From Gemmatimonadota bacterium (lineage in GTDB: Bacteria > Orphanbacterota > Orphanbacteria > Orphanbacterales > Orphanbacteraceae): a DNA stretch of 55,383 bases. Below are positions 3,193 through 36,178 of the stretch, piece by piece. The DNA is taken from assembly GCA_020061515.1 (NCBI GenBank), contig JAGUYC010000050.1, positions 1-55,383 on the forward strand, given 5' to 3'. A program made the position numbers and the translations under genes. The notes beneath the pieces were generated by a model, which saw only the letters and a list, made by a program, of their open reading frames with translations, was not told the origin of the DNA and did no database searches. Numbering within the stretch: the stretch's first letter is position 1; every line of letters starts with the position of its first letter.

Positions 3193-4158
3193 TCAGTACG
3201 ACGCGAGAAGCTCCCAGGTCCTCGTGTCCCAGATCTGGGCGCCGGCGAGGGGCCAGACGACCGCGAGGTAGCGCCCGGTCCGGTCGAAGGCGGCCGCTCG
3301 CGGAACCTCGGGCTCCTCTCTCCTCCGGATGAGGCGGACGGATCGAAAGCGCTTCGCCACGTCGCCCGTTCGCGCGTCGCGGACCTCGATGCGCGCGCGC
3401 AGCTCGGGAGACGATCCCTCGATCGCTCGGAGAAGAAGGAGGACGAGGTTCCCCTCCGGCGCGAGGAGAGCCCCGAATGGCTCTTCCCCGGGGGCGAGCT
3501 CGGCGAGGACACCGGCCGGACCTCCCGGGCGCACGAGTGCGAGACGCCGTTCCTCGACGAGCAAGAGGCCGGCGGCGGCCTCCCGCTCATCGGTCCATGC
3601 GAGCGGTTCCCCGTCCCCCGGAAGCGGCTCGAACTCCGGCTCGCCGTCCAGACGCACGATGCGGTCGCGAAGGAGGATCATCACGCAGCGCTGCTCGCGG
3701 CGCAGGTCGAGAGGTTCCCAAGGAGGGCTCCATCGAAGCGAATCGACCGGGGTTCCTTCGGGCAGCCTTCGCCTCTCGAAGAAGCCGGGGCCGCCCAAGT
3801 AGAGATCGGAGCCGTCCGCGTCGAGAAGCGTGACGGGCCCGCGAAGACCGACGAGCGAAAGGACCGGCCCCGCGGATCCATCCCGGTAGATGTCGACACG
3901 CGGCGCCTCGCCCGGGAGCGAGGCGGCGAGAAGACCCTTCTCCCACTCGACCGCGAGCGCGAGCGGCTCGGGTAGGCTGTCCGTTCGAGGGATCGCCTCG
4001 CCTTCGAGGAAGGGGAGCTCGAAAACCCTCCCTCGGTTGTAGGCGATCAGCTTCTCCCCGTCCGGCGACCAGGCGATCGGACCGAAGCGCGCGGCCGCCT
4101 CGGCGTTTCGCGCCGCAAAGAGCCCGAGAAGAAGAACAAGCAGGGTTCGAGGGAGCAT
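3193..4158 (-). CDS. Secreted hypothetical protein, possibly PD40/WD40-like beta-propeller
   Basis: 321-aa ORF with ATG preceded by GAGGAAG. Signal peptide MLPRTLLVLLLGLFAARNAEA. The WSPDGEKLIAY motif resembles TolB/PD40 repeats. Lies downstream of the CBM48 gene string on the same strand. Confidence 0.6.
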   Translation of the reverse strand: MLPRTLLVLLLGLFAARNAEAAARFGPIAWSPDGEKLIAYNRGRVFELPFLEGEAIPRTDSLPEPLALAVEWEKGLLAASLPGEAPRVDIYRDGSAGPVLSLVGLRGPVTLLDADGSDLYLGGPGFFERRRLPEGTPVDSLRWSPPWEPLDLRREQRCVMILLRDRIVRLDGEPEFEPLPGDGEPLAWTDEREAAAGLLLVEERRLALVRPGGPAGVLAELAPGEEPFGALLAPEGNLVLLLLRAIEGSSPELRARIEVRDARTGDVAKRFRSVRLIRRREEPEVPRAAAFDRTGRYLAVVWPLAGAQIWDTRTWELLASY

Positions 4159-4264
4159 GGCGCTTCCTCGCAGGATCCGCCGGGTTCACGAAGGCGGATA
4201 TTCGAGTGTTGGGCCGGCGCCGACCCGAGAGGGCCGGCGCCCGCGCGGCATCCTCCGCACGCGC

Positions 4265-6559
4265 TCAGGGGAGGAGCGTGATCGTGTACGTGCGCGTCGC
4301 CTCGTCGAGGCGGAATTCGTACGTGCCCGGTTCCAACTTGATCTTGCCGAGAGCGGCCGGCTCGCCGCCGCTCCCCTGGCAAATGCTCCCCGCGAGCGGA
4401 GTGGAGCAGGTGTTGTCCTCGGGGCCGCAGTTCCCATAATCGTTCGCGCCCCAATCGTTTCCCGTTCGGAACTTCATGAAGTGACAATTATCCGGGGGAC
4501 GCGCGGCGACGACGATCGTGTCGACCCAGAGACACGGCTGGATCTGCGTCATGCTCGGGATGCTCGTGTTCCACCCGTTGAAGTCTCCGACCGCGCGGAT
4601 GATCGTGAACTCCGACTGGCAGGTCACCTCGGTCAGCGTGACCGTGCCGAGGTTGGCGGTCGCTCCGTCGGCGACGCTTACGCCGGCGATCGTGGTGTCC
4701 CGGAAGCTCGCCCCCGTGAAGGCGACGTCGTAGACGCCGCCGTCCAGATCGTCCGCCGTGAAGGTCCCGAGATCGACGTCGACTCGAGCGGTCGCGGCGA
4801 GGAAGCCGCCGGCGCTCCTGGTCACCCGAACGTCGATCACGGGGAACGGAGGCTGCCGGCCGGTGTCGAACGCGACGCTCCCCACGATCCGCGCGCCGAA
4901 CTCCTCAATCGAAAGGACGCGGTATTGGAGCGAGTCTTCGTCGAGCGTCACCTGGAAGCGGCCGGCGTTCGGGACGGCGAACAACAAGTTCTGCCCGCTC
5001 GCCAAGAGGCAGATCGGCCGGTAGGTAACCAAGTCCTCCGTGATCAGCGTGTCGCAGCGCACGTAGTCCGGCGGGTTGTCGTACGCGCGGTCGGTCACGA
5101 ACTTGAACTGCACGATTCCCGGAAGGGAGATAGACGCCGGGAACACATCGATCGTGTCGATCCAGAGGCAGCTTCCGATCTTCTGCATTCCCGGGTCGGA
5201 CGTGAAGAGCCGCTCGTCCCACGCGTTGAACTCGCCGAGCATGTGGATCGTCGAGGCGACGCTGACGCACCCCGGCCGCATCGCGATTGTCCCGACCTCC
5301 GTCGTCTCGGCCGCCGCGACGGAGACGTTCGCGAGCGTCGTGTCGACGTATCTGCGCGCGCGGATCCCGATCTCCACGCTCCCCGCCGGCACGCCGTCCA
5401 GGACGAACCCGCCGTCGACCGCGCTCGAGGTCGTTTCCGCGAGCCGCACGAGGCTCGACGGATCCGTGTAGAAGATCGTCGCGACCGGAAGGACGCTCGG
5501 ATCGTCTTCGAACGCGATCGCGCCGGAAACCGCTCCCCCGCGGGCGAGCGTGATCGTTCCGAGGTCGATTTCCTCATCCGCAAGGAACTCGATGGAGAAG
5601 AGGATCGTGTCGACATAGCCCGCCGCGTGGAAGCGGAGATCGTAGGCGTCTTCGTTCAGCCCGGCGATCGAGAAGACGGTCGTCCCGGCCGGAATCATCG
5701 TCGTATCGACGGCGGCTCCGGTCGCATGGACCGAAACGATGATCCGCACTTCCGGCGTTTCCACGGGGCCGTCGCTGAAGGCCACGCGTCCCTGGAGCGC
5801 GCCGGTCAGGAGCACGCTCACCGCTCCGAGATCGACGCCCGCGTCCCCCGCCACGCGGACGTTTCGGATGTAGCGCACGGGGAAGGTCTCCGGATCGCCG
5901 GGGACTGAGAGGATGATCGTGTAGTTGCCTCGAGCAAGGTTCTCGATCGTGAAGCGCGTGCTGTCGACTCCGGTCGTGTCCCAGAGAGCCTCGTCTTTCG
6001 CGAGAACCCAGAAGTACCCCGGATCCGTGGATGCGTTCAGGAGGAATTGGTACGCTCCCGCCGAAGGGATCGACACTCGCAGGTTGTCTCCGTTCGTGTT
6101 CACCGTCGTTCCGCGCCGCGCGGCCTCATCGACGCCGCTCCCCCCCATCGCGTAACTCCCGTCCCAAGACCCGTTCGTGACGAACTTCCATTCGAACTGG
6201 TCGTCCGCGGCGAGCGGTTCCTCGCCGATCCAAAGACAGGGGAAGAGCTCGTTCATCCCAGGCGTCGACTCCCAGATTCCCGTATCCCACGCGACATTCT
6301 CTCCGGTCACATGGACCGACGTCGGCCCGCCCGTGCACGCGGGATTGTAGCCCGGAATCGCATAGACGACGGTGAGCGGGTAGGGCGGCCCCATCCCCCA
6401 ATCGAGCGTTCCCGTGATGATTCCCTCCGCGAGAGCGCCGCCCCCGGAAGGGTCGAGGAGCGTGTCGTTCGGATTGCCGCCGCAGCGCGCGAGGATCATC
6501 ATCGCCGCCGCCGCCACCAAGAGCGCTCCTCCGAGAATCGTCGTTCGTTTCTTCATCAT
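4265..6559 (-). CDS. Surface (lipo)protein with three CBM48-like glucan-binding modules interleaved with CarboxypepD_reg-like Ig domains
   Basis: The ORF track gives 4265..6790, but the Arg-rich first 77 aa look non-coding. MMKKRTTILGGALLVAAAAMMILARCGG at 6559 is a signal/lipoprotein-like N-terminus. Three repeats match the GxFNxW...KFxT pattern: VHVTGENVAWD..FEWKFVTNGSWDG, IHMLGEFNAWD..VQFKFVTDRAYDN, IRAVGDFNGWN..HFMKFRTGNDWGA. Confidence 0.75.
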   Translation of the reverse strand: MMKKRTTILGGALLVAAAAMMILARCGGNPNDTLLDPSGGGALAEGIITGTLDWGMGPPYPLTVVYAIPGYNPACTGGPTSVHVTGENVAWDTGIWESTPGMNELFPCLWIGEEPLAADDQFEWKFVTNGSWDGSYAMGGSGVDEAARRGTTVNTNGDNLRVSIPSAGAYQFLLNASTDPGYFWVLAKDEALWDTTGVDSTRFTIENLARGNYTIILSVPGDPETFPVRYIRNVRVAGDAGVDLGAVSVLLTGALQGRVAFSDGPVETPEVRIIVSVHATGAAVDTTMIPAGTTVFSIAGLNEDAYDLRFHAAGYVDTILFSIEFLADEEIDLGTITLARGGAVSGAIAFEDDPSVLPVATIFYTDPSSLVRLAETTSSAVDGGFVLDGVPAGSVEIGIRARRYVDTTLANVSVAAAETTEVGTIAMRPGCVSVASTIHMLGEFNAWDERLFTSDPGMQKIGSCLWIDTIDVFPASISLPGIVQFKFVTDRAYDNPPDYVRCDTLITEDLVTYRPICLLASGQNLLFAVPNAGRFQVTLDEDSLQYRVLSIEEFGARIVGSVAFDTGRQPPFPVIDVRVTRSAGGFLAATARVDVDLGTFTADDLDGGVYDVAFTGASFRDTTIAGVSVADGATANLGTVTLTEVTCQSEFTIIRAVGDFNGWNTSIPSMTQIQPCLWVDTIVVAARPPDNCHFMKFRTGNDWGANDYGNCGPEDNTCSTPLAGSICQGSGGEPAALGKIKLEPGTYEFRLDEATRTYTITLLP

Positions 6560-6573
6560 CCTCGTTGCCCCCC

Positions 6574-6987
6574 TCAATCGACAACGAGAAGGGAGTTGTA
6601 GCCCCCGTATCCGTCGTCCACGCGCTGGGGATTGTTCGGATCTTCCTTCCACGTTTTCTCGTCGACCACGAACTTGTACTGATAACGGCCGGGTGGGAGA
6701 TCGACGACGATCTGCCAGACGCCGTCGCCGTCCTCGTCGCTCATCAGGCCGATCAGGTAGCTTCCCGTCTGCGCTTGCCCGCGCAGCCAATCATTCTCCG
6801 GCCAGTTGCCGGCAAGCTGGACTCGCTGCGCCGACGGCGCTTCGAATTGGAAGAGGACCCCGCCTTCCGCGTGGTAAGGAGGCGGCAAGCGCCGCTTCAC
6901 GAAGTTCAGATTGACGCACGCGGCGGCGAAGAGAAGAACCGCCAGCAAGGCGATTCCGGCCGTGGAAGCGTGAAGTCCTCTTCTCAT
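6574..6987 (-). CDS. Small lipoprotein consisting of a single CBM48 (AMPK-beta glycogen-binding) module
   Basis: Internal ATG at 6987 gives MRRGLHASTAGIALLAVLLFAAAC (lipobox FAAAC), 10 nt after the stop of the upstream gene with GGAG/GAGG between. VQLAGNWPENDW...GRYQYKFVVDEKTWKEDPNNP is a clear CBM48 signature. The longer listed ORF 6574..7278 overlaps the upstream gene. Confidence 0.8.
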   Translation of the reverse strand: MRRGLHASTAGIALLAVLLFAAACVNLNFVKRRLPPPYHAEGGVLFQFEAPSAQRVQLAGNWPENDWLRGQAQTGSYLIGLMSDEDGDGVWQIVVDLPPGRYQYKFVVDEKTWKEDPNNPQRVDDGYGGYNSLLVVD

Positions 6988-6997
6988 CCTCGCACTC

Positions 6998-9181
6998 CTA
7001 GAAACGCACGATCGCTTCGACTTGGATTCGGCGTTCGTCCTCGAGGGCTTTCTCCGCGGCGGGAATCGACGAGGCGAGGGAACGGAAGTTGCGCCGCGCC
7101 GCGTCGCCGTTCGCGCCCCGCGCGAAGAGGAAGAGATCGCGCCCGACGGCGTCGAACTCGTTCGTCGTCTCGTCGACGATGAAGGGATCCACGCCGTAGG
7201 AGAGAGCGACCTCGATCCCTTTCGCGACCTCGTAGGCCACCTCCGCGAAGGTCGACCAGTACGAGCCGAAGAGACCAAGAACGGGATCCGTGTACTTCAC
7301 GAGCCGCGTGTCGGAATACAACCGGATCTTCTTCGACGGGTACCCTTTGAATTGGAAGAGGTTCTCCGTGTACTTCGGATCCCTGTTTAGATCGATTCCG
7401 GCGAACGTTCCTTTCCATGTAAACGAAACATCCTTCGGGGCGTACAGGACCGTCGAGAGCGCCGGCCGGACGAACGAGGCGTTCCTCCCGCCGACCAGGA
7501 CCATCCGGTCGACGGAGACCTCGTGCTCGCTCTGCTCGAGCCAGAAGTTCCGCTCGTCGAACCAGAACTGATTCCGCCACGGGGTGCGGGAGTCGTACCG
7601 GAAATCGTACGCCTCCACCTCGAGTCCGAGATCCCACTTCCTGCCGAACAACCGCTCCCATCCGCGCGCGGCGCCGAAACGGTAGACGCTCATCACGTTC
7701 TCGAGGGTGTCCCAAATCGACGTGGCGTAGTAGGTCTGCTCGTGCCCTTCCCGCTCGTACTCGGCGGAAAGCCGAAGCCCCGACCCCCCGAAACGGTACT
7801 CGCCGCCGAGGAAGACCCGCGTGGACCGGTCGATCTCGAACAGAGCGCCGGCCGCGGCGCGCTCGCCGGATGTCGTCGCGATCTCGGAGGTGTAGAGCGT
7901 GTCCCCGAAAACCTCGTCCACCTCGCGAACCGTGCGGAGCTCGACGTCCGCCTCGCGCCCCTCGATCGCCCGCACCGCGGCCCGCCCGTGAAGAATCTCC
8001 GCGCGCAGGACGTACGGCTTGGCCTCTCCTCCATAGAGGAGATCCCCGCCCGCGCCCCACCATCGCTCCCAGGTCTTCCCGAACTTCCTCTGGACGCCGA
8101 GCGTGCCGGTCGTGTCCTCCGGGTCGATCTCGACGATCGAGAGCGTCCCCGGGTTGTACCCGCGGTCCACGCGCGCGGAGACCCCGACGCGGAGATCGCT
8201 CACCGGATACTTGGCGCGGAGAGCGAGGATGTCCTTGTTGTTGTCGTCGTCGTAGGCTCTGTATGTGGCCCCCTCGTTCCTCTTGAACCGGAACGCCCCG
8301 CGCGCGCTATCGAACGCGGCTTCCTCCGTCGCGATGCTCAGGCTGTCGAGCACCGTCACCGTCGTCCCGCCGTTCTCGAAATCGTCCGCGTAGAGAACCG
8401 TGAGGCCGAGCGCTCCGAGCCCGAAGCTTCCGATCGCGCCTTGCTGGCGGAAGCCGAAATCGTGATCGTAGATTCCGATCCCGCCGACAAGCTCGAGAGG
8501 ATCGTCGAAGCGCCCCGCCGACTCATTGTCGAACATCTTAAGACTGAAGCTTTCGGTATGGAGGCGGAGCGACCCGCGGTCGAACCTCAGGTTCGTCTTC
8601 CAGAAATCGGTGACCGTCGCCTCGCCCTCGTTGTTGATCGAGGTGAGGAGATGAAGATCGAGATAGTCGTTCGCGCGAATCAGCCAGTCGAGATTCATGT
8701 CCATGTACGGCCGCTCGAGCTCCATGCGGCCGCCCCGGCTCTCGTTCTCCCGCGCGATGAAGCGGCTGATCATCCGCCCGCCGAGAAGGATCTTGGCCGA
8801 GTACGCCGTGTTCGCGGTCGCCGCCGCCGCCACGATCTTCCCGTCCGCTCCCACGTGGACGAGCGAGTTGCCGTACTCGCCGATCGTCACCGGATTCTCC
8901 GGGTCGGCGAACCACTGTCCGTCCACGACGAACTTGTACTCGTGCTTTCCGGATCCGAGAGGCACGACGACCGACCAGACGCCGTCGGGGCCCTTCGTCA
9001 TGGAGTTCGCCTGCGCGTTCCAATTGTTGAACGCCCCCGCCACGTACACGCTCCCCGCGTTCGGATCGGCATAGGTGAAGCGGATTCCACCCTCCACGGC
9101 CTCGACTCCGGCCTCCGCCCGGGAAAGCGCCGCGAGAAACGCGACGACGATACATGCCGTTCGTGCCATGTTTGACCTCAT
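6998..9181 (-). CDS. Outer-membrane beta-barrel protein with N-terminal CBM48 glycogen-binding module
   Basis: 727 aa with AAGGGGAG 8 nt upstream of the ATG. Signal peptide MRSNMARTACIVVAFLAALSRAEA. VYVAGAFNNWN...GKHEYKFVVDGQWFADPENP is a CBM48 module. The remaining ~600 aa have alternating-hydrophobic strand patterns and end in ...QVEAIVRF; a C-terminal Phe is typical of OMP barrels. Confidence 0.75.
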   Translation of the reverse strand: MRSNMARTACIVVAFLAALSRAEAGVEAVEGGIRFTYADPNAGSVYVAGAFNNWNAQANSMTKGPDGVWSVVVPLGSGKHEYKFVVDGQWFADPENPVTIGEYGNSLVHVGADGKIVAAAATANTAYSAKILLGGRMISRFIARENESRGGRMELERPYMDMNLDWLIRANDYLDLHLLTSINNEGEATVTDFWKTNLRFDRGSLRLHTESFSLKMFDNESAGRFDDPLELVGGIGIYDHDFGFRQQGAIGSFGLGALGLTVLYADDFENGGTTVTVLDSLSIATEEAAFDSARGAFRFKRNEGATYRAYDDDNNKDILALRAKYPVSDLRVGVSARVDRGYNPGTLSIVEIDPEDTTGTLGVQRKFGKTWERWWGAGGDLLYGGEAKPYVLRAEILHGRAAVRAIEGREADVELRTVREVDEVFGDTLYTSEIATTSGERAAAGALFEIDRSTRVFLGGEYRFGGSGLRLSAEYEREGHEQTYYATSIWDTLENVMSVYRFGAARGWERLFGRKWDLGLEVEAYDFRYDSRTPWRNQFWFDERNFWLEQSEHEVSVDRMVLVGGRNASFVRPALSTVLYAPKDVSFTWKGTFAGIDLNRDPKYTENLFQFKGYPSKKIRLYSDTRLVKYTDPVLGLFGSYWSTFAEVAYEVAKGIEVALSYGVDPFIVDETTNEFDAVGRDLFLFARGANGDAARRNFRSLASSIPAAEKALEDERRIQVEAIVRF

Positions 9182-9252
9182 GGGATCCGCTCCCCTTGCG
9201 CCCGGACCGGCCGCTCGGTTCCGCCGCGATTCTTCGTCACGAGCTCGCCAGG

Positions 9253-10794
9253 CTAGAAGTTTCCTTTCATGATCAACCGAATCATGTCCTTATTGTCTGC
9301 GCCTCCGGCGAGATCTCCATCGTCGACCGGATTGTTCGAGTCGCCGATCCAGAAGGGACCGTACGAAAGGTACAAGTCCATATTTCTCTGCGGGCGGTAT
9401 TGGAGCTCGGTGAAGAGACCTTTGCGGAGCCTCGCCGGATCGTTCCCGAACGCGTAACGAGTGTACAGCTTGAGGTTCCCCGTCAGGTTCACCGCCGCCT
9501 CGAGCGAGACCAATTCCTTCTTGAGGTTCGTTTCCAGGTCCTTCAGCTTCCCCTGGACCCGCATCCACGCGAGGCGGCTCTCCACCTGAACCTCGCCGAA
9601 GAGATCGTAGTTCTTCGTCACGTCCTCGAAGAGCGGGTTGCTCGTGTCGACCGTCTTCCTCCGGTCGTACCAGAGCTTGCTCGTGAACCCGTTGACGTAC
9701 TCCGTGTAGACCTCGCCTCGCCAGCGCGTGAAGGTCTTCTTCTCGAAAACGTACTTCTCCCACTCCTCGTAGTCGAGGGTCAGCGTGATCGCGCGGCGCG
9801 GCAGGAGATACCAGCTGTTCACCTTCCATCCGACGAGATCGTTTGTGCTCTCGCCGAGGAAGCAGCTGAAGTCTGGCCCGAAATAGTAGTAGAGCGGCGC
9901 GATGTTGTAGTACCCGAGCGAAGGGGTCCCGAGCGTGATCGCTCGAATCTCGGCTTTCAACGCCGCGTTCCGGGGGAGCGCCGCGGAGAAACGATCGACC
10001 TCCCAATCGCCGAAGTGGAAACCGTCCTGGTCCGGCTTGTCGATTCCGATCTGTTTGCTGCTCGCGAACTCCAGGTAGAGATCCGTGTTCCCCAGCGTAG
10101 ACCGCGTGTCGAGCGCCCAGACCTCGTTGTAGTCGAGGTCCGACGCCGGCCCGATCACCTTTCGGTTGTAGGTCGCGCCGAGCCGGAAACGATCCATGAG
10201 GATCGGGCGCCATCTCAGGATGTGCGCGTCGTCGGTTGGGGAGGGCGCCGTGCCCCCGCCGACGCGGGATTGGCTGGAGAAATCGCTTAAGATGTAGGTA
10301 AAAACATCCGCCCAATTCTCCGTCTTGAGGTTGAAGCGGAACCCCTGCGCGTTGTCTCCGTCCTTCACCTGATGGGGCTGGACCACTTGAATGAGATGGT
10401 TCTCCACCCAGAAGCGGTCCTGCCGCGAGAAGAGATAGACCTCGGCGATCGATTTCTTGCCGCGGGGGAGGGTGACCGGCGTGTGAAAGCGCGCGTGGCT
10501 CTCCCGATACTGGAAGAGCGGCCGCTCGTTTTCGTTCCCCCCCGTGTACCAATCCGCCTCGAACTTCACGAACGTCTCGACGCCCGTGCGGGGCTGGGAA
10601 AAGATCCGGAACTGGCTCGCCGCGTACGTGTCGTTGTTGTTCGATTCGAAGTCCCACGGGAAGAAGCGGTCCTGCTTTCGGATGTCGAGCTGGAGCTGGT
10701 ACTCCCCCTCGATCACCGTGGCCGCGTCGGCGGAAAAGGGCGAGGCTCCGAGGAGCCCCGCGAGCAAGACCGAGAGCGCGACGGTCCCTCTCAT
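9253..10794 (-). CDS. Outer-membrane beta-barrel protein, paralogous to the barrel part of 6998..9181
   Basis: Internal ATG at 10794 gives MRGTVALSVLLAGLLGASPFSADA (signal peptide) and overlaps the upstream stop as ATGA (10791-10794). C-terminus ...LSYGPFW...MIRLIMKGNF resembles ...LSYGVDPF...EAIVRF of the neighbouring barrel. The listed start at 11043 lies inside the upstream gene. Confidence 0.65.
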   Translation of the reverse strand: MRGTVALSVLLAGLLGASPFSADAATVIEGEYQLQLDIRKQDRFFPWDFESNNNDTYAASQFRIFSQPRTGVETFVKFEADWYTGGNENERPLFQYRESHARFHTPVTLPRGKKSIAEVYLFSRQDRFWVENHLIQVVQPHQVKDGDNAQGFRFNLKTENWADVFTYILSDFSSQSRVGGGTAPSPTDDAHILRWRPILMDRFRLGATYNRKVIGPASDLDYNEVWALDTRSTLGNTDLYLEFASSKQIGIDKPDQDGFHFGDWEVDRFSAALPRNAALKAEIRAITLGTPSLGYYNIAPLYYYFGPDFSCFLGESTNDLVGWKVNSWYLLPRRAITLTLDYEEWEKYVFEKKTFTRWRGEVYTEYVNGFTSKLWYDRRKTVDTSNPLFEDVTKNYDLFGEVQVESRLAWMRVQGKLKDLETNLKKELVSLEAAVNLTGNLKLYTRYAFGNDPARLRKGLFTELQYRPQRNMDLYLSYGPFWIGDSNNPVDDGDLAGGADNKDMIRLIMKGNF

Positions 10795-11681
10795 CGCTCT
10801 CCCCCGATCGGGACGGTGATCGACGCCGTGTACGAGACGCCGAGCGTCTTGTGCGTCGCGAACCCCGCGTCGAAGAACCAAGACCCCGTGAGGACCCCGA
10901 ACCCGCCCCAGTACTCGTGGTCGAAGATCCCGCTCCGGAGGGCGAAGACATCGAAGAAGAGGACCTCGCCGCCGATCGCGGGGGAAAGGTCGCCTCTTCG
11001 GTTCGTTGCGAAGCCCCCGGAGACAAGGGAAGCTTCGTTCCATAGATAAGTGATTGAACCCTCAACCTCCGCTTCCATCCGCGTCCCTCCCCCCCCCCCA
11101 ACGAACTCGAACGCGGGCACTCCCACGTTTCGAAGGATCGCTCCGATGCGAAGGTCGCCGCGAGGCCGAACGATCGCCCCGACATCCGCGGCGAGCTTCG
11201 TCTGCGAGCCGTAATCGACCTTCTCCAGAGTTTCGAAATCGCGGAAGTCCGAGTAGCCGACGCGGAAGACCTTTCCCGTGATCCCGATCCCAAGCTCGCC
11301 GAGCATTGGAATCGAGGTCTGCCGGCCTGCGGAGAGGAAGAAGAGATCCTCGGAGACCACGCCCGCGAGTGACGTGCGGTGCCAGCCGACGCCCGCGGTT
11401 CCGAATGCAGGCGGAAGGGGAAGCGCGAAGGCGGCGAAGTTGATCGAGAGGTCCTCGACGACGTAGGGCCGGTTGTGCGCGAGAAGCACGGCCGCGCGCC
11501 TCTGCCAGGCAAGGCCGGCCGGGTTCCAATAGACCGCCGCCGGATCGTCCGCGAGCGCGTGGAACGTCTTCGCCATCGCGACCGCCCGCGCGCCCGTCTC
11601 GAGCCGATCGAAATACGCGCCGCCGGCCGAAGGGACGAAAAAGGCGAGAAGAAGCGCGAGAAATCCGGCCTTTCTCGTCAT
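10791..11681 (-). CDS. PorV/PorQ-like (FadL-fold) outer-membrane protein
   Basis: Internal ATG at 11681 gives MTRKAGFLALLLAFFVPSAGGA and overlaps the upstream stop as ATGA (11678-11681). The N-terminal motif GARAVAMAKTFHALADDPAAVYWNPAGLA matches, as I remember it, the GARxxGMGGAFxAVADDxSAxYWNPAGL signature of PorV/PorQ/UPF0164-type barrels. Confidence 0.55.
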   Translation of the reverse strand: MTRKAGFLALLLAFFVPSAGGAYFDRLETGARAVAMAKTFHALADDPAAVYWNPAGLAWQRRAAVLLAHNRPYVVEDLSINFAAFALPLPPAFGTAGVGWHRTSLAGVVSEDLFFLSAGRQTSIPMLGELGIGITGKVFRVGYSDFRDFETLEKVDYGSQTKLAADVGAIVRPRGDLRIGAILRNVGVPAFEFVGGGGGTRMEAEVEGSITYLWNEASLVSGGFATNRRGDLSPAIGGEVLFFDVFALRSGIFDHEYWGGFGVLTGSWFFDAGFATHKTLGVSYTASITVPIGGER

Positions 11682-12967: not shown

Positions 12968-13056
12968 GAGAATGAGAAGCCGTCCGGGAAACGGCCGATC
13001 CTTTCGCCGGGAGAGTAGCAGCCGCCCGAATCGAGAGTCAAGAATCATCGCGGCTC

Positions 13057-13085
13057 TTGAGATGCCGGGCGGCGAGCTCTATGAT
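13057..13085 (+). promoter_or_regulatory. Candidate sigma-70-type promoter for the GH13/GH57-like gene pair
   Basis: TTGAGA (13057-13062), 17-nt spacer, TATGAT (13080-13085), about 35 nt upstream of ATG 13121. Similar consensus-like promoters are seen at 48330-48358 and 54172-54200. Confidence 0.35.
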
Positions 13086-13120
13086 CGGACCAGGTCCGTG
13101 ACCCAACCAAGGAGCGAACG

Positions 13121-15781
13121 ATGCGACACCGAACCTCCCTGCTCGCTTTCCTTGTTCTCCTCGCAGGAACTTTCGAGGCCCGCGCGGAGACCGCCGTTCT
13201 CTTCCGCTACGACGCCGGCGAGCCCGGCCGGCGGGTCTTCGTCGCGGGCGAATGGAATCGATGGGACCCTTCCGCCGACCCGATGCTCGACGCCGACGGA
13301 GACGGGATCTACGAGAAGACGATCGCGCTCCCTCCGGGTCGGCACGAATACAAGTTCGTCGTGGACGGCGTTTGGATCGAGGATCCGAACGCGAGCGAAT
13401 CGGTCCCGAACCCGTACGGCTCGTCGAACTCGGTCGTGTACGCCGGAGCCGCTCCGGAACCCGGCGTCTATCGGATCGCCGCCCGCGGCGCGGAGACGCC
13501 GGCCGCGGAGATCCGCGAGGTGCTCTTCTCGTTCCGGCCCGACCGAACCCCTCGGGCCGTCTTCCTCGCCGGAACCTTCAACGATTGGAAGCCGGACGCT
13601 CAAGCGATGGACGGCCCGGACGCCGAAGGGCGCTTCCGCGTCCGCCTTGCGCTCCCTCCCGGCGAGTACCAGTACAAGTTCGTCACCGACGGCTCCTGGT
13701 ATCACGACCCGGCGAACGAGAAGACGACCGACGACGGCTTCGGCGGCTTCAACTCGATCCTCGTCGTGGACGACCGCTTCCACGCGATCCCGCTCCGCGC
13801 GGGGGATGGTAGCATTTGGGAGGGGACGCTCTCTCTCGCGCCGGACCACGTGAGCGCGGTGCGCACCGAGGCCGGGCGCGTCGTCGTGACCGCCCGCGCC
13901 CATCAGGGCGACGTCACCGGTGCGGAGATCCTCTTTCGACGGGGAGGTTCCGAGAGCCGGGTTCCCATGCGCGCGCTCGGAGGAGACGGCCGCTACATCT
14001 ACTTTCGAGGGGAGCTGGACGCCGGCCCCGGCGTCGAGGGGCGCATCGGCATCGTTCTCGCCGACGGGGATTCATCGCGCATCGTGACGCGCTCCGGGCT
14101 CGCCAGAGAAGCGAGCGACGCCCAGCTTCTCGAGATCAACGCGATCGGAACCCCTCTCTTCTCCATCCCCGATTGGGTGGTCGACGGAGTTTTCTATCAG
14201 ATCTTTCCCGAGCGCTTCCACAACGGGAACAAGAAGAACGATCCCGATTTCCGCGAACCGTACTACGCGGGGAAGACGACGCTGCCCGAAGGGGGGAAGA
14301 CCAACAGCGAGCACTACCACCTCGTGAAGGACTGGCACGATGTTTCCGGTCTGTCCAAGAGTCCCCACCGGACCGACGGCCGACCCGACTACTTCTCGTT
14401 CTACGGGGGAGACCTCGAGGGGGTGCTCGAAAAACTCCCCTATCTAAAAGATCTCGGCGTCACCATTCTTTACTTCAATCCTCTCCACACGGGGAAATCG
14501 AACCACAAGTACGACGCGTGCAACTATCGCGAGACGGATCCCCATTTCGGAGGGAACAAGGCTTTCCGAAAGCTCGCCGACGCCGCCCACGAGGCGGGGA
14601 TGCGGATCGTCGTCGACGGCGTCTTCAACCACACGGGGAACTGCCACTACGCGTTCGTGGACTGTGTGGAGAAGGGGAAGGACTCGCCCTATTGGCTCTG
14701 GTACGAGTGGAGGAAGTGGCCGCTCCCCGAGACGTTCGGGGAGGGAGAGAAGGCGAGCGATTACTACGACTGCTGGTGGGGACACGGCGATCTTCCCAAC
14801 TTGAACTTCGATCTCTCGCGGCCGAACGCCACCGAGCAGGCGGCGACACGGATCTCGGAGGCGATGCCGAACGAACCGGTTCTCGAGGAGATTCGGGCGG
14901 CGGTCCGCTTCTGGCTGGAAGAGATGAACGCCGACGGGTTCCGGCTCGACGTGGCGAACGAAGTGCCGGCTTGGGTGTGGAGGATCTTTCGGGAAGAGGC
15001 GCGGCGGGTGAAGCCAGACGGCTTCGTGATCGCCGAGCTCTGGGGAAGCGCCGCGGCCGATCTCTCGCCGCTCCGCTTCGACGCCACGATGAACTACCGC
15101 TACTTCCGGGATCCATGCCTGGCCTTCTTCGCCCGAAGCAACATCGATGCGTCGGTTTTCGATCGGCAGCTTGCCGGCGGACGGTTCGGCTATCCGCTCC
15201 CCTCCGTTCTCGGGGCGATGAACCTCCTCGGCTCGCACGACACGGAGCGCTTCCTCACGCTCGCCGGAGGCGACACGCGGCGTCTTCTTCTCGCGTCGCT
15301 CTTCGCGGCCACCTACGTCGGCGTCCCTCACATCTATTACGGAGACGAGATCGGTATGGAGGGCGGACCCGATCCCGACTGCCGCCGCCCCTTCGAATGG
15401 AAGACGCTCGAGACCCCGCGCGGCACGGCGATCCGCGAGCGCGTGCGCGACTATCTCGCGATCCGGCGGGATCATCCCGCGCTTCGGCGCGGAGAGTTCC
15501 GCACGCTTCTCGCCGAGGGGAAGGTCTACGCATACGCGCGGTGGACCGATGAGGAGAGGCTCGCGGTCTTCCTGAACGCAGGCGGCGCGCCCGTGACGGT
15601 GATCCTGGAGCCCGAGGCTCTCCCCTTCGAGTCGGGGAGCTCGTTCGATCTCTTCGCGGGGCGCGAGACGGCGATCGAGGAGGGCCTCTTTCGGATCTCG
15701 CTCGAACCGTTTTCCGGAACGATCCTTCGGTTCCCGAAGAGCGAGAGCGAGCCCGCGCCTGTTGATTCGCAATCTCAATAA
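13121..15781 (+). CDS. Secreted GH13 alpha-amylase-family enzyme (neopullulanase/cyclomaltodextrinase-like) with two N-terminal CBM48 modules
   Basis: AAGGAG 6 nt upstream of the ATG and signal peptide MRHRTSLLAFLVLLAGTFEARA. CBM48 modules: VFVAGEWNRWD..GRHEYKFVVDGVWIEDPNA and VFLAGTFNDWK..GEYQYKFVTDGSWYHDPAN. GH13 regions I-IV: DGVFNHTG, GFRLDVANEV, VIAELWG, LLGSHDTERF; also VFYQIFPERF. Confidence 0.9.
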   Translation: MRHRTSLLAFLVLLAGTFEARAETAVLFRYDAGEPGRRVFVAGEWNRWDPSADPMLDADGDGIYEKTIALPPGRHEYKFVVDGVWIEDPNASESVPNPYGSSNSVVYAGAAPEPGVYRIAARGAETPAAEIREVLFSFRPDRTPRAVFLAGTFNDWKPDAQAMDGPDAEGRFRVRLALPPGEYQYKFVTDGSWYHDPANEKTTDDGFGGFNSILVVDDRFHAIPLRAGDGSIWEGTLSLAPDHVSAVRTEAGRVVVTARAHQGDVTGAEILFRRGGSESRVPMRALGGDGRYIYFRGELDAGPGVEGRIGIVLADGDSSRIVTRSGLAREASDAQLLEINAIGTPLFSIPDWVVDGVFYQIFPERFHNGNKKNDPDFREPYYAGKTTLPEGGKTNSEHYHLVKDWHDVSGLSKSPHRTDGRPDYFSFYGGDLEGVLEKLPYLKDLGVTILYFNPLHTGKSNHKYDACNYRETDPHFGGNKAFRKLADAAHEAGMRIVVDGVFNHTGNCHYAFVDCVEKGKDSPYWLWYEWRKWPLPETFGEGEKASDYYDCWWGHGDLPNLNFDLSRPNATEQAATRISEAMPNEPVLEEIRAAVRFWLEEMNADGFRLDVANEVPAWVWRIFREEARRVKPDGFVIAELWGSAAADLSPLRFDATMNYRYFRDPCLAFFARSNIDASVFDRQLAGGRFGYPLPSVLGAMNLLGSHDTERFLTLAGGDTRRLLLASLFAATYVGVPHIYYGDEIGMEGGPDPDCRRPFEWKTLETPRGTAIRERVRDYLAIRRDHPALRRGEFRTLLAEGKVYAYARWTDEERLAVFLNAGGAPVTVILEPEALPFESGSSFDLFAGRETAIEEGLFRISLEPFSGTILRFPKSESEPAPVDSQSQ

Positions 15782-15899
15782 TGGTATAATCCTCGAGAGA
15801 TTCGGGAGATACGGTCTTCTCTTCGGCGCTCGCGGCGGGATGAGAAGGCTCCCTCCCGCTTGCCGCTCCCCGAACGTTCGTCCGAAAAGGAGAAAGCTC

Positions 15900-18800
15900 A
15901 TGCGTTTCGCGCACGTCGCCGCGTACGGTCTTCTGGCCGTCTCTCTCGCGATCCCCTTCCCCCTTTTCGCAGCGCCGTCCTCCCCCGCGCCCGCGCCGGG
16001 GATCGACGCCGCGGGCGATCCGACCGCCTACGGTCCCGAACACGCGAAGGCGCTCGCGCCCGTTTACGACACGGCAAGGCCCGGGGCGCGCGCGGCCGAC
16101 CTCATGGCCTTCTACTACGACCAGAACGTCGATCGCCTTGCGTTCCGCGTTCAGCTCTTCGACATCGGATCGTCCGACGAAACCGTCAACCGCATGAAAG
16201 ATTCGAACACGAAGATCTACATCGCCCTCGACTACACCGACGGAGGGACGCGCGCGCTTCCCGACGGGATTCGCGGCGAGGCGCCTATTCTCTGGGACCG
16301 CGTGCTTCGCATCGGATACGATGAAGCCGGCGCGCTCCGAGGCACCTTGCTCGACCCCTCGTTCGGCGGGGGAGAGACGGACCGCGTGAGGCGCGTTCAC
16401 GTTTCGCTCCGGCACGACATGGTTGAGGGCTCGATCCATCTTCCCGGCGGTTTCGAGGAGGCGGCGATCCGCGCCGCGGGGAAGAGCGGAGCCGTATACG
16501 AAGAGATCGCCGAGGCGGCCGCCGCGGGCGATCGGACGCCGGTCCGCTTCTACGTCTTCACCGCGCAAGGGAACGAGCTTCAGGACGCGATCGAGGCGGA
16601 CAACGCCTCGCGCCCCGGCGACCACAACGTCGCCTTCATGGTGCACGGCAATCAGGGACTCACCTGGACGTCGGTGTTTTACGGGGAGCGCGGCGAGAAC
16701 GCGTCCTACCCGGGCGATCCGAACAACCCGGACGACGGATTCGACGAAATCCTCGATTGCCACCGCTACTACGACATTCCGCTCAACATCCACCTCGCCG
16801 GACAGCTTCAGACGAGCGCCGAGTGGCACAACCCCGAGTTCAACGACTCGATCGCCTCGGCGGTCGCCCAGGGATGGGGAGACATCATCACCTCCGCATA
16901 CGCGCAGCACATGATGCCCTTCGTGCACAACAACATGAACGATTGGGCGGTGCACATCGAGAAAGTGATGTCGGACTGGCGCTACGGGGACACGGCGGTC
17001 GTCGCGTGGGTTCCCGAGCGCGTGTGGCTCGAGAACCCGGACAACGACGGGAACGGCATCACGGCGAGCGGAGGCGTCGTCGACAACACGCTTCTCGACA
17101 ACTGGATGAACCACGGCGTGCGCGCGGTGCTCCTCGACGACTACATCCATCTCGACTACTACAACGACTGGGCGAACGACCGCCACGTCTACGTTCATTC
17201 CAACGGCCTCAAGTTCATCCCGATGGACGGCGACTTCGTCGGCGCGATGGACAACGACTGGGGCAGCGCGTGGAACATGATCGTGAACCTCTCCTCCGAC
17301 GAGATCCTCGTCTACGGAAACGACTGGGAGATCCCGGCGGAGGTGAGCCAGGGCGCCTGGAACCAGTACGCGCTGAACAACTGGATCCACGTGATCCGCC
17401 AGTGCTGGCTGAACAGCGGGACGGTCGCCGTCTGGAAGCTCTCCGACGTCATTCACCACGGTCCGTTCATCTCCGGAATCTCGAACCCAACGATCCAGAA
17501 CGGGACCTACGGCCTTCTCGGCGGCAAGTGGGGATACGGCGGCGGCAACAACTCGTGGTACATCCATTGGGCGGGATACAGCGATCCGGCGCACGTGTGG
17601 GATTTCCACACGCCGACGTGGAACTACGGAACCATCTGGACCAACGCGTACAACACGATCATGGCGAGCCCTGCGAACGACCTTTCCGAAACCGCGTGGT
17701 ACGTGATGATGACCAACCTTCACGAGACCGGTTGGCACGACGAAGGCGAGATCAGCGGCTGGATCTACCGCTACTCGAACAAGATCAAGAACGCGAACGT
17801 CTACGCCGAGGCGGCGCGCTGGGCGAACGGCGACTACGCGAGCGCGACCGGGGCCTATCTTTCGGACATCGATCAAGACGGACAGGTCGAGGGGGTCATC
17901 CACAACGACAAGCTCTTCGCGGTGATCGAGCCGATCGGCGGGCGCATCGTCCATCTCTTCGCCCAGGAGACGGGCGACGAGTACTCGGTCATCGGGAACT
18001 GCAACGTCTACTGGACGGATACCGAAGGAGATTACAACGAGGGGAACCACGTCGGCGGCCTCTCGGACGTCAGCGTCGCCGGCCTCGACCGCGAGCACGA
18101 TCTCTACACGATCTCGGTGGTCGCCGGCTCGGGGAACAAGGTCGCGCTCGATCTCGTCCATGCGAATGTGACCAAGCGGCTGAACCTCGAGCTCGGCAAG
18201 AAGTATCTCGACGTCGTGTACGACGCCGCGGGGCAGGACGTCTACGTGAAGAGCGGCTTCTCCCCCGACCTTCTCGACCTCATCTGGAACGCGCGTTCCG
18301 ACCGCGTGTGGGCGGCGACGCCGGTCTCGGGGGCCTACTTCGGCCAGCGGAACCCGAACTCGGGTGCGACGGCGGCGATCGTGGTCGGCAACGGCGGCGC
18401 GCGCCACAACCTGCAGTACAACTCAACGCTCATGGGCGTGGAGGAGCTCTTCGGAAGCGGCCAGTTCGAGATGTACCTCTTCGCGGGCGAAACGGCGGCG
18501 CCCGACGGCCAGGGGAACATCGCCGAGCTGCAGACCTTGGCGAGCGCGCTCTCCGACACGCTGAAGCCGCGCGCCGTCTCCGCGACCTACTTCCCGACGC
18601 CGGACCGCATCTCGATTCTCTTCAACGAGAAGGTGAAGTACGACCAGGTCGTCGTGGCCGGCTTCAAGGTGGACGACGACGACGACGGCATCGCGGATGT
18701 AACCTTCTCCTCCGGTTGCACGGTCGTCACGACGAGTAACAGCGTGCGGATCGACATCGCCCTCGACGCTGCGACCGCCTCCGCCATCGAGGGCCTGAAT

Positions 18801-19907
18801 CCGAACACGCTCGAGCTCATGATGAACGCGAACACGGTACGGGATCTCGCCGGGAACGGGAACCGCGCCCTTACCAACACGCACAACGTGGCGATCGAGG
18901 TCGCTCCCGCCACGATGATCACGATCGACGGCTACTTCGATCCGAACGAGTGGACGAACGGCATGCGGATCGTGAGCGACTATTGGGACAGCGACTGGAC
19001 AACGCCGAACCCGGGCGACACGAACGACATCAACGCCCTTTACATGACGTGGGACAGCACGTACCTCTACCTCGGCATTCTCGGCATCGTGCACAACAAC
19101 TCGTGGCTCCTCTATCTCGACACCGACCCGGGCGGGCCGAACGGCGAGTCGGATCTCGATTCGATCGACCGATGGGAGCGGGGCGCGCAGCTTCCCTTCC
19201 CGGCCGATTTCCAGTACGGCTGCTACCAGCATCAGAGCGGGTACGACTCGGACAGCTTCTGGAAGATTCTCGACAAGCTCACGACCGAGGACTTCAGCGG
19301 GTCGATCCTCTCCGCATTCGACTCGCAGCACTTCTATCACACAAGCGGCGGGAGCGAGATGGCGATCCCTTGGGACGTGCTCTACGGTCTCGGAGCCGGG
19401 AACGTGCCGCCCGGCGCCTCGATCAGTCTCGTCGCGTCGATCTGCTGGGATCCGGAGCCGGACGGCGTGCTCGGCGGCGATCAGGCTCCCGACAACATCG
19501 CCGCGACGCCGCCCGTCCTCGACAACTTCGTGACGGTCACGGTCGACCGGAACGGCGACGGGAAACCGGACGCGAGCAACGAACCGGTCGGGGTGAGCGG
19601 CGCGGACGTGCCGGCGGCGAAGCTCGCGCTTCTCGGGAACGTCCCGAACCCATTCAACCCGACGACCGAGATCCGCTTCGTCGTTCCGGGCGCCGCGGGG
19701 ACGTCGGCGCGCGTGCGCCTGGCGATCTTCGATCTCGCGGGACGCCGCGTCGCCACGCTCGCGGACGGCGTCCTTCCGTCCGGATACCGGACGGCGGCGT
19801 GGAATGGGACAGCCGATGATGGGACGGCGGTTTCTTCAGGCGTCTACTTCGCGCGCGTCGAGGCGAACGGAGAGACGGCGACGAGGAAGGTTCTTTTGAT
19901 CCGATAA
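15900..19907 (+). CDS. Giant secreted GH57-like alpha-glucan-active enzyme with Ig-like, CBM9/DOMON-like and T9SS-type C-terminal domains
   Basis: ATG 15900 with AAAGGAGA 7 nt upstream and signal peptide MRFAHVAAYGLLAVSLAIPFPLFA. GH57-like conserved regions: VHGNQG (for HxHQP), GDIITSAYAQHMMPF (for GQxEIxTSPYYHPILP), AWVPERVW (nucleophile region WLxERVW), MDGDFVG (for DGExFG). The C-terminus LLGNVPNPFNPTTEIRF...LAIFDLAGRRV...SGVYFARV is a CTD. Confidence 0.7.
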   Translation: MRFAHVAAYGLLAVSLAIPFPLFAAPSSPAPAPGIDAAGDPTAYGPEHAKALAPVYDTARPGARAADLMAFYYDQNVDRLAFRVQLFDIGSSDETVNRMKDSNTKIYIALDYTDGGTRALPDGIRGEAPILWDRVLRIGYDEAGALRGTLLDPSFGGGETDRVRRVHVSLRHDMVEGSIHLPGGFEEAAIRAAGKSGAVYEEIAEAAAAGDRTPVRFYVFTAQGNELQDAIEADNASRPGDHNVAFMVHGNQGLTWTSVFYGERGENASYPGDPNNPDDGFDEILDCHRYYDIPLNIHLAGQLQTSAEWHNPEFNDSIASAVAQGWGDIITSAYAQHMMPFVHNNMNDWAVHIEKVMSDWRYGDTAVVAWVPERVWLENPDNDGNGITASGGVVDNTLLDNWMNHGVRAVLLDDYIHLDYYNDWANDRHVYVHSNGLKFIPMDGDFVGAMDNDWGSAWNMIVNLSSDEILVYGNDWEIPAEVSQGAWNQYALNNWIHVIRQCWLNSGTVAVWKLSDVIHHGPFISGISNPTIQNGTYGLLGGKWGYGGGNNSWYIHWAGYSDPAHVWDFHTPTWNYGTIWTNAYNTIMASPANDLSETAWYVMMTNLHETGWHDEGEISGWIYRYSNKIKNANVYAEAARWANGDYASATGAYLSDIDQDGQVEGVIHNDKLFAVIEPIGGRIVHLFAQETGDEYSVIGNCNVYWTDTEGDYNEGNHVGGLSDVSVAGLDREHDLYTISVVAGSGNKVALDLVHANVTKRLNLELGKKYLDVVYDAAGQDVYVKSGFSPDLLDLIWNARSDRVWAATPVSGAYFGQRNPNSGATAAIVVGNGGARHNLQYNSTLMGVEELFGSGQFEMYLFAGETAAPDGQGNIAELQTLASALSDTLKPRAVSATYFPTPDRISILFNEKVKYDQVVVAGFKVDDDDDGIADVTFSSGCTVVTTSNSVRIDIALDAATASAIEGLNPNTLELMMNANTVRDLAGNGNRALTNTHNVAIEVAPATMITIDGYFDPNEWTNGMRIVSDYWDSDWTTPNPGDTNDINALYMTWDSTYLYLGILGIVHNNSWLLYLDTDPGGPNGESDLDSIDRWERGAQLPFPADFQYGCYQHQSGYDSDSFWKILDKLTTEDFSGSILSAFDSQHFYHTSGGSEMAIPWDVLYGLGAGNVPPGASISLVASICWDPEPDGVLGGDQAPDNIAATPPVLDNFVTVTVDRNGDGKPDASNEPVGVSGADVPAAKLALLGNVPNPFNPTTEIRFVVPGAAGTSARVRLAIFDLAGRRVATLADGVLPSGYRTAAWNGTADDGTAVSSGVYFARVEANGETATRKVLLIR

Positions 19908-24844: not shown

Positions 24845-24845
24845 G

Positions 24846-26081: not shown

Positions 26082-26110
26082 TTCCTCCCTCCTCTCCGCA
26101 CCGCGCGCTT

Positions 26111-36177: not shown

Positions 36178-36178
36178 T

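Follow-up and report, generated by a model that had tools for sequence, protein, structure and literature searches.

The window analysed here is a stretch of 55,383 nucleotides (positions 1 to 55,383 of contig JAGUYC010000050.1 in the Gemmatimonadota bacterium assembly GCA_020061515.1). Its subject is a cluster of genes for exported proteins, bearing domains of carbohydrate-binding module (CBM) family 48, glycoside hydrolase (GH) domains and type IX secretion system (T9SS) features, which probably form a locus for the use of alpha-glucans. The G+C content of the window is about 64%, and its genes are picked out cleanly by third-position GC, on which the gene calls are based. Six tightly packed minus-strand genes run from 12967 down to 4265 in the order G5, G4, G3, G2, G2b and G1, and a divergent plus-strand pair, G6 and G7, occupies 13121-19907 (Table 1). 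ATGA start/stop overlaps lie exactly at 11678-11681 (G5/G4) and 10791-10794 (G4/G3). The other gaps in the string are 71, 10 and 14 nt (G3/G2, G2/G2b and G2b/G1), and together with the overlaps they fit a single operon. A first-pass annotation, made from the DNA letters, had described this string, the divergent pair and the overlaps; its coordinates are exact, and the string holds six genes rather than five. All eight products (G1, G2, G2b and G3-G7) begin with a signal peptide. G7 was called at 15900-19907, and its open reading frame (ORF) opens already at 15762. A sigma-70-like sequence (10/12) lies on the plus strand between G5 and G6 at 13057-13085; the scan for promoters and terminators gave match counts no higher than chance, as judged on shuffled sequence, and this match is a pointer only.

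Table 1. Features of the candidate alpha-glucan locus and its importer and cargo genes, by position in the window
Feature	Position	Strand	Description
G1	4265-6559	-	764-aa probable lipoprotein; CarboxypepD_reg (Ig-like) spacers and three divergent CBM48-like modules
G2b	6574-6987	-	137-aa lipoprotein; one CBM48, basic tether after the lipid Cys
G2	6998-9181	-	727 aa; signal peptide, CBM48 (aa 27-110), linker, plug-less beta-barrel of ~24 (+/-2) strands
G3	9253-10794	-	513 aa; exported, undescribed family, probable outer-membrane beta-barrel
G4	10791-11681	-	296 aa; small PorV/PorQ-family (FadL-like) outer-membrane barrel
G5	11678-12967	-	429 aa; signal peptide, ~300-aa CBM74/CBM9-like domain, C-terminal beta-sandwich like FlgD-Ig and T9SS C-terminal domains
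G5-G6 intergenic, presumed promoter region	12968-13120	.	153 nt, divergent
G6	13121-15781	+	886 aa; signal peptide, two CBM48, GH13 catalytic domain, maltogenic-amylase-type C-terminal domain
G7	15900-19907	+	1335-aa T9SS cargo; remote GH57-like domain and C-terminal CBM9-like region
CUT1-type ABC importer, four genes	23133-27190	-	Pfam domains
MalG-like permease	23133-23963	-	BPD_transp_1; NCBIfam MalG 180.6 vs 261
MalF-like permease	23960-24844	-	BPD_transp_1; NCBIfam MalF 182.7 vs 392
MalE-like lipoprotein binding protein	24846-26081	-	SBP_bac_1/8; NCBIfam MalE 141.8 vs 291
MalK-like ATPase	26111-27190	-	ABC_tran with OB_MalK and TOBE_2
Non-catalytic T9SS cargo	27393-29438	+	681 aa; CBM9-like N-terminal and CBM20-like internal modules

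Membership of CBM48 was taken as a score above the Pfam gathering cut-off (PF02922 or PF16561). Four modules pass, one in G2, one in G2b and two in G6. The G2 module scores 53.3 bits against AMPK1_CBM (3.3e-14) and 41.4 bits against CBM_48, that of G2b 36.6 bits against AMPK1_CBM (cut-off 26.8) and 24.5 against CBM_48 (cut-off 22.4), and the two AMPK1_CBM stretches of G6 sum to 97.6 bits (4.9e-28). The G2 module aligns at E 1e-12 with the carbohydrate-binding module of AMPK beta2 and keeps the positions FNNW, YKF, GQW and Asn. In the 42 homologues W54, K83 and N105 never vary, and at least 90% of the homologues keep W90; we take these Trp/Lys/Trp/Asn positions to be the AMPK-type sugar-contacting residues. 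Seven CBM48 modules had been proposed for the locus. The four above stand, and the three in G1 fall below threshold. A custom hidden Markov model (HMM) derived from the CBM48 modules of the locus itself matches G1 of the window weakly (summed E 9e-6, best module i-E 9e-4) and finds the same three positions more clearly in G1 orthologues (3e-8, 1e-7 and 2.5e-4 in the related locus L017). The three modules carry the pattern 'G.FN.W ... KF' and, judged by sequence, are best called divergent CBM48-like, for a locus total of four bona fide and three divergent modules.

The two lipoproteins differ in the segment that follows the lipid Cys. G1, which also has CarboxypepD_reg domains (7.9e-13 in Pfam), has an atypical lipobox in the window (LARC) and a canonical one in its orthologues, 13 of 15 of which carry acidic or Asn-rich residues after the lipid Cys; such residues there recall the lipoprotein export signal of Bacteroidota. 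G2b has a lipobox, and its sequence from the lipid Cys on reads C-VNLNFVKRRLPPP, with the basic tether KRRLPPP. A tether of the form [ILV][KR]xR[LVI]PxP is conserved across phyla, and in the window and the orthologues of loci L001-L083 it takes the fuller form C-x(2-5)-[FILV][IVL][KR]xR[LVI]PxP. The tethers are thus basic in the G2b lipoproteins and acidic or Asn-rich in the G1 family, and that of G2b could serve docking or sorting. Some relatives have a second type of CBM48 lipoprotein of about 150 aa (L015 14845-15321, L044 14665-15138 and L038 13822-14262), whose gene lies directly upstream of that for the MalE-like binding protein and is missing from the window; its tether in L015 and L044 reads 'C-DRTRPY...'.

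In G2 a CBM48 module is joined to a large barrel. The AlphaFold2 (AF2) model, built on a 42-sequence alignment (pLDDT 86.5, pTM 0.77), gives in order the signal peptide, the CBM48 sandwich (residues 27-110), a linker and a barrel of about 24 strands (130-726) that ends ...IVRF. There is no plug domain in the model; the CBM48 sandwich and linker stand where a plug would be. The mature N-terminus directly after the signal peptide is CBM48 in G2 and the start of the conserved presumed barrel region in G3. Residues 111-128 of the G2 linker (window 8798-8851, minus strand), 'ATSNTxYSPKIL', have low AF2 confidence and are nearly invariant in the 42 homologues, which points to a functional contact, not to a passive spacer. 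Conserved helices at residues 680-714 (window 7040-7144, minus strand), just before the last barrel strand, may be a plug in the lumen or a periplasmic latch. Foldseek matched the model to generic large barrels only (TonB-dependent transporters (TBDTs), AlgE and FimD; TMq 0.23-0.36); none of the 42 members has a Pfam family for its barrel part, which also lacks a PDB sequence match. A profile of the barrel part alone, searched for fusions to other CBMs, found 19 proteins, all with CBM48; its word-index step probably limited sensitivity.

Two familiar identities for these barrels were ruled out. A SusC-like TBDT does not fit, as Plug and TonB_dep_Rec go unmatched, CBM48 takes the place of the plug and the TBDT matches in Foldseek are generic (root-mean-square deviation 16-29 Å); G3 and G4, for their part, are too short for TBDTs. 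The maltoporin reading fails on the lack of a LamB (PF02264) match in G2, G3 and G4, and no maltoporin is among the 50 Foldseek matches listed for G2. No scanned gene of the window has a Plug (PF07715), TonB_dep_Rec (PF00593), SusD or LamB domain in Pfam or NCBIfam, in agreement with the first-pass annotation, which had recognised no SusC/SusD-like gene. TonB-dependent receptor, Plug and SusD annotations are likewise missing from the annotated related loci L001, L002, L084 and L085.

G3 has a signal peptide and ends ...KGNF. Its sole Pfam match is a weak one to Porin_4 (0.009); G3 has no NCBIfam family, and the 35 members of its family share no consistent Pfam family and, searched as a profile, have no PDB sequence match. 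The family is small; in a set of 1.84 billion representatives it takes up 101 clusters at 50% identity. Comparison of G3 with the G2 barrel gave a weak collinear match in hhalign (E 2.5e-4, and 3e-3 in a global alignment; 43% probability) and a single 33-aa match in BLASTP (E 0.007). A clear paralogy of G2 and G3 is unproven. A strand count for G3 from hydrophobic alternation failed as a method, reaching an area under the curve of 0.64 on the G2 model. G2 and G3 are always adjacent and probably form a hetero-complex.

The two genes upstream of G3 resemble T9SS components. All 37 members of the G4 family match PorV_fam (NF033709; best 1.1e-24), 35 match PorV2, 22 PorV, 16 PorQ and 8 PorP/SprF, and the family profile matches PorV in the PDB (6h3i_F) over two stretches at E 1.5e-10. 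G4 of the window itself reaches 47.4 bits against the PorV_fam cut-off of 90, matching with its N-terminal third alone. The PorV-like barrel that had been proposed here is therefore upheld by its family and falls short on its own score, and the family profile marks G4 as a distant, shorter member of the PorV/PorQ family.

G5 has no Pfam or NCBIfam match. Its AF2 model (pLDDT 91.1, pTM 0.83) ends in a C-terminal beta-sandwich, and its five best Foldseek matches are all Ruminococcus bromii Sas6/CBM74 structures, including a maltodecaose complex (E 9e-9 to 1.4e-7, probability 1.00, TMq 0.30-0.33). Lower matches include PorZ (2.6e-4) and the CBM9 of Thermotoga maritima Xyn10A (1i82, 9.6e-4). A profile search found no PDB sequence similarity for the N-terminal domain. 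CBM74 has a CBM9-like core and binds single- or double-helical alpha-glucans of at least 8 glucose units (bioRxiv 10.1101/2022.11.20.514607). At the C-terminus, 15 of 24 members of the G5 family match FlgD_ig and 12 of 24 the C-terminal domain of PorU, with three matching CHU_C and five Por_Secre_tail weakly. In sequence and in the model the G5 C-terminal domain appears to resemble most the retained, uncleaved ones of PorU and PorZ, and it probably pairs G5 with the PorV-like barrel G4. There is precedent in Bacteroidota, where proteins with such C-terminal domains are anchored on neighbouring PorP/PorV-like barrels (PMC9143113, PMC12618676), and reviews describe the T9SS as spread across the Fibrobacterota-Chlorobiota-Bacteroidota (FCB) superphylum (PMC11205867, PMC12421860). 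Two genes for secreted metalloproteases lie elsewhere in the window: one for an M36/InhA-like enzyme with a choice-of-anchor J domain at 2-2992 (minus strand), which runs off the window, and one for an M10 matrixin enzyme with a FlgD_ig C-terminal domain at 46600-48294 (minus strand). They indicate that T9SS-type cargo is common in this genome beyond the starch locus.

The divergent pair and the genes beyond it supply enzymes, an importer and further cargo. G6 matches Alpha-amylase (PF00128) with 189 bits (2.2e-55), and GH13 regions I-IV can all be read (DGVFNH, GFRLDVANE, IAELWG and GSHDTER). Its best NCBIfam matches, maltodextrin glucosidase and cyclomaltodextrinase, are both below cut-off. 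The first-pass annotation had called G6 secreted; with a signal peptide and neither a C-terminal sorting domain nor a lipobox, it is probably periplasmic. In G7 the C-terminal domain is of T9SS type A (TIGR04183, 30.9 vs a cut-off of 23), and the GH57-like domain matches the Thermococcus litoralis 4-alpha-glucanotransferase (PDB 1k1w) at E 1e-3, with 'WVPERVW' on 'WLTERVW'; we take this 'W-x-x-E-R' region to be that of the GH57 catalytic nucleophile Glu, and 'MDGDF' is a candidate for GH57 region IV, found by eye only. The HMM search thus recovered the expected GH13 and gave for GH57 18.6 bits vs 21.2.

The importer has the domain content of the CUT1 type, and the matches of its MalG-, MalF- and MalE-like proteins are all below the equivalog cut-offs. 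For the ATPase the best NCBIfam match is UgpC (465.9, above the subfamily cut-off of 432), with MalK second (377 vs 568). The cargo protein encoded downstream also passes TIGR04183, with 31.0 (the earlier claim of T9SS-type cargo in the locus is borne out by G7); its family profile matches the C-terminal domains of FlgD and PorU and, weakly, the glucoamylase CBM20 1ac0 (0.034). This content supports an alpha-glucan locus, as had been proposed: besides CBM48 it includes an apparently active GH13 and a GH57-like enzyme, together with binders like CBM74 and CBM20.

Relatives of the cluster occur in several phyla. More than 80 full-length G2 homologues were found, and at least 542 loci, from one genome per species, have a G2 relative, the weaker of which may match by CBM48 alone. 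The nearest named relatives of G2 belong to Candidatus Eisenbacteria (61-76% identity), which makes this phylum the most probable origin of the window. The best 80 loci are from metagenome-assembled genomes (MAGs) of Eisenbacteria, Gemmatimonadota, Krumholzibacteriota, Cloacimonadota, WOR-3, Hydrothermota and Fibrobacteraceae. Onto these we mapped the window proteins, counting a locus only where it had enough flank. G3 lies directly upstream of G2 in 77/78 loci and G2b directly downstream in at least 60/72, with G4 near G2 in 67/73 and G5 in 51/69. Among the 44 long loci, importer genes are co-located in 36, a CBM48-GH13 gene of the G6 type in 30 and a homologue of the multi-CBM T9SS cargo (27393-29438) in 33. 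WOR-3 and Hydrothermota loci have a minimal core of G3-G2-G2b(-G1) without the upstream G4/G5 pair. A distant variant, L084, carries downstream a true GH57 with CBM48, a GDE_C glycogen-debranching protein and GlgP (14174-19203). G5 is replaced in that locus by a protein of 1434 aa (103-4407) that combines Glucodextran_C and Big_1 with a C-terminal sorting domain. The strong E-values and the synteny across phyla amount to more than chance. Loss of gene order in relatives had been named as a refutation of the first-pass annotation and is not seen, and the proposed coupling to a MalEFGK-like importer recurs in the relatives as well. That annotation had overlooked the CBM74/CBM9-like fold and C-terminal domain of G5, the place of G3 in the minimal core, and the downstream cargo protein, which is part of the system.

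Taken together, these findings make it probable that the cluster is a conserved locus for the utilisation of alpha-glucans (starch, glycogen or maltodextrin) in FCB members outside Bacteroidota, with TonB-independent passage through the outer membrane, import by a MalEFGK-like transporter, and the CBM48 modules of G2 and G2b facing the periplasm. The mechanism that we propose starts from the identified domains, the lack of a plug, the layout of the operon and the synteny; its other steps are inferred. T9SS-type cargo displayed outside the cell would capture the polymer at the surface: G5 would probably stay attached to the neighbouring G4 barrel through its uncleaved C-terminal domain, as in the PorU-PorV, PorZ-PorQ and type B cargo-PorP pairs of Bacteroidota, and the downstream cargo protein and the GH57-like G7 would bind the polymer and perhaps nick it. 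Glucan chains would then cross the outer membrane through G2, G3 or both, where the CBM48 modules of the G2 N-terminus, G2b and G1 would hold the chain at the membrane; those of G2 and G2b, most probably on the periplasmic face, would stop it from sliding back. In the periplasm G6 would cut the chains to maltodextrins, which would enter the cell by way of the MalE-like binding protein, a lipoprotein, and the MalFGK-like transporter.

The topology is argued from the position of the modules. The N-terminal domains of known outer-membrane barrels are periplasmic, as in the plug and N-terminal extensions of TBDTs, the POTRA domains of BamA, LptD and the ushers. The G2 module is N-terminal to its barrel and CBM48 is also present on the probably periplasmic G6; the G2 module and G2b are therefore more likely to lie under the membrane than on the surface, and the 'cell-surface' placement first given to the CBM48 carriers is unproven. 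G1, with its SusE/F-like build and the acidic residues after the lipid Cys of its orthologues, may be surface-exposed. A further step is possible but, in our estimate, rather doubtful: G2, G3 and G2b could be a new class of TonB-independent glycan translocon of the outer membrane, in which a giant plug-less barrel or barrel pair is fed by T9SS-displayed surface binders on a dedicated PorV-like barrel, and long alpha-glucan chains are drawn inward by a passive ratchet made up of the barrel's own periplasm-facing CBM48 and the tethered CBM48 lipoprotein.

Several points weigh against the proposed alpha-glucan uptake locus. Neither a pore nor a substrate site nor a likeness to a known glycoporin was found for G2 or G3, and G3 is a probable outer-membrane barrel on weak sequence evidence. 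The transport role of these two proteins is inferred solely from the presence of large barrels in the right operon. For the G1 modules Pfam gives no CBM match at E<=0.1, and the likeness of G5 to CBM74 is at the level of the fold only (11-12% identity and TM ~0.3 over multi-domain chains). G7, whose Glyco_hydro_57 score is below threshold, occurs in 4/44 long loci only and is not core. The T9SS core (SprA/Sov and PorK/L/M/N) has no domain match in the 55-kb window, the part of the genome that was covered, and all the relatives are uncultured MAGs.

We also weighed a topology in which all CBM48 carriers, that is the G2 N-terminus, G2b and G1, are exposed on the surface like SusE, SusF and SusD and feed the barrel channel, forming a capture platform hard-wired to the outer membrane. 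G1 resembles SusE/F in its build, with Ig-like spacers and more than one starch-binding module on a lipoprotein, its orthologues have the acidic or Asn-rich residues mentioned above, and three members of the G2 family give faint SusF_SusE matches. A barrel of about 24 strands could moreover house a lipoprotein or pass its own N-terminal domain, as in LptD-LptE or the autotransporters. The rule that N-terminal domains of such barrels are periplasmic speaks against this topology, however, and the G2b tether is basic (KRRLPPP) rather than acidic. In addition, G6, with a signal peptide only, has two CBM48 modules, so that periplasmic CBM48 would be normal for the system, and machinery for the export of surface lipoproteins was not identified. 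We judge an all-surface arrangement unlikely.

The six-gene operon might instead serve T9SS-linked display and anchoring only, with G4, G3 and G2 as anchors or shuttles that keep enzymes and starch-binding proteins at the surface, and the products entering by unrelated general porins rather than through these barrels. The PorV/PorQ affinity of G4, the PorU/PorZ-like C-terminal domain of G5, the three T9SS-type proteins in or beside the locus and the documented anchoring of C-terminal-domain proteins on PorP-like barrels (PMC9143113) are all in keeping with this, as is the lack of pore evidence for G2 and G3. We nevertheless regard it as quite improbable: the minimal core of WOR-3 and Hydrothermota does without G4 and G5, and G2 and G3 are unlike any T9SS component in Pfam, NCBIfam, PDB and family scans. 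The tight, conserved link to the MalEFGK-type importer and the probably periplasmic CBM48-GH13 also imply that sizeable glucans reach the periplasm. Very improbable, finally, is export or anchoring of a self-made alpha-glucan (a capsule, or a periplasmic or surface glycogen-like polymer) whose nascent chain is guided by periplasmic CBM48 as in AlgE, BcsC and PgaA, for although a large barrel with a periplasm-facing N-terminal binding domain recalls the polysaccharide export porins and AlgE is among the G2 Foldseek matches, the resemblance is of a general kind (TMq 0.28-0.29), the annotated related loci show no glycosyltransferase, synthase or polymerase conserved within the cluster, and the conserved neighbours (GH13, GH57, GDE, GlgP and the MalEFGK-like importer) are catabolic or serve uptake.

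Other genes of the window were recorded in passing. At 20022-20762 on the minus strand, 115 nt past the end of G7 and opposite to it, lies the gene for a lipoprotein of 246 aa that has a Big_9 Ig-like domain, and tblastn found no homologue of it in the related loci. About 10 kb from the locus lie genes for a sigma-54-dependent response regulator and for a histidine kinase with a GAF domain (37281-40407, minus strand); one weak match of the G2 search is a fusion of CBM48 and a sigma-54 activator. A 1099-aa fusion of NuoF-like (FMN, 4Fe-4S) and GltD-like (Fer4_20, Pyr_redox_2) parts, beside a NuoE-like 2Fe-2S protein (31974-36417, minus strand), may be an electron-bifurcating or NADH:ferredoxin-type oxidoreductase. 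A 518-aa ORF with GAPDH domains, apparently extended at its N-terminus, adjoins a 1439-aa ORF with PPDK_N and PEP-utilizer domains (40974-46599, minus strand), and a canonical GAPDH-PGK pair is present at 51852-54165.

Outer-membrane uptake of polysaccharides is understood mainly through the SusCD-type TonB-dependent systems of Bacteroidota and the small sugar porins of Proteobacteria. For abundant uncultured groups such as Eisenbacteria, Gemmatimonadota, Cloacimonadota, Krumholzibacteriota and WOR-3, the cluster offers a concrete, conserved and testable candidate for polymer uptake. Should the proposed uptake locus be real, it would define a new outer-membrane architecture for glycan import, extend the roles of PorV/PorQ-like barrels to nutrient capture outside Bacteroidota, and provide an annotation marker for alpha-glucan use in MAGs from soil, sediment and wastewater. 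Should the translocon exist, it would be a counterpart of SusCD in FCB members outside Bacteroidota, driven by binding energy rather than by TonB. Public annotations call the cluster proteins 'hypothetical' or 'glycogen-binding domain-containing protein', and a literature search, with subscription journals outside it, found no description of the cluster, in line with the earlier suggestion that the architecture is probably undescribed. Its notable features are the CBM-barrel fusion, the invariant G3-G2-G2b triad, the basic G2b tether shared across phyla and the T9SS attachment logic that appears to serve the capture of nutrients.

Compared with known systems, the CBM48 modules themselves are conventional. 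They match those of the AMPK beta-subunit and the N-terminal modules of GH13 enzymes (E 1e-12 to 1e-16) and keep the Trp/Lys/Trp/Asn sugar-binding positions, but in this locus a module occurs by itself on a lipoprotein or in fusion with an outer-membrane barrel, and we found no description of either context.

With the maltose regulon of E. coli (LamB, MalS and MalEFGK) the locus shares the proposed TonB-independent passage, a periplasmic GH13 that would trim the chains and an ABC importer with an OB/TOBE MalK-type ATPase. It differs in having no LamB-family match, in a G2 barrel of about 24 strands against 18 in LamB, and in its CBM48 modules, lipoproteins and surface-displayed binders. The likeness to Bacteroides SusCDEFG and other polysaccharide utilisation loci lies in the clustering of starch-binding lipoproteins of Ig-like spacers and CBMs (G1 vs SusE/F) with an outer-membrane barrel and alpha-glucan hydrolases, and in the hand-over to periplasmic enzymes and an inner-membrane importer. 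Unlike Sus, the locus has neither a SusC-type TonB-dependent transporter (no Plug or TonB_dep_Rec) nor SusD. Its barrels are from undescribed families, one of them bearing a CBM itself; uptake at the inner membrane is by a MalEFGK-like ABC transporter; T9SS-type cargo and a PorV-like barrel are built in; and the hosts are Eisenbacteria and related groups rather than Bacteroidota. SusCD pairs are essentially a Bacteroidota trait. In a host that is not a member of that phylum their absence is to be expected, so that 'Sus-independent' is in itself unremarkable and the contrast with Sus that the first-pass annotation had drawn is less telling.

The G5-G4 arrangement is like the T9SS pairs PorU-PorV, PorZ-PorQ and type B cargo-PorP/SprF (PMC9143113, PMC12618676) in that a gene with a C-terminal sorting-type domain adjoins and overlaps a barrel gene. 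It is unlike them in the shorter G4 (296 aa), below the PorV_fam cut-off, in a cargo that is a starch-binding module, and in its place in a nutrient-uptake operon outside Bacteroidota, and the pairing of G4 and G5 is a predicted one. G5 is, lastly, like R. bromii Sas6 (CBM26 and CBM74, of the amylosome) in its CBM74/CBM9-like fold of about 300 aa and in being non-catalytic, and it too would sit on the cell surface. It differs in sequence, and would use a T9SS-type C-terminal domain in a diderm where Sas6 uses a dockerin in a Gram-positive.

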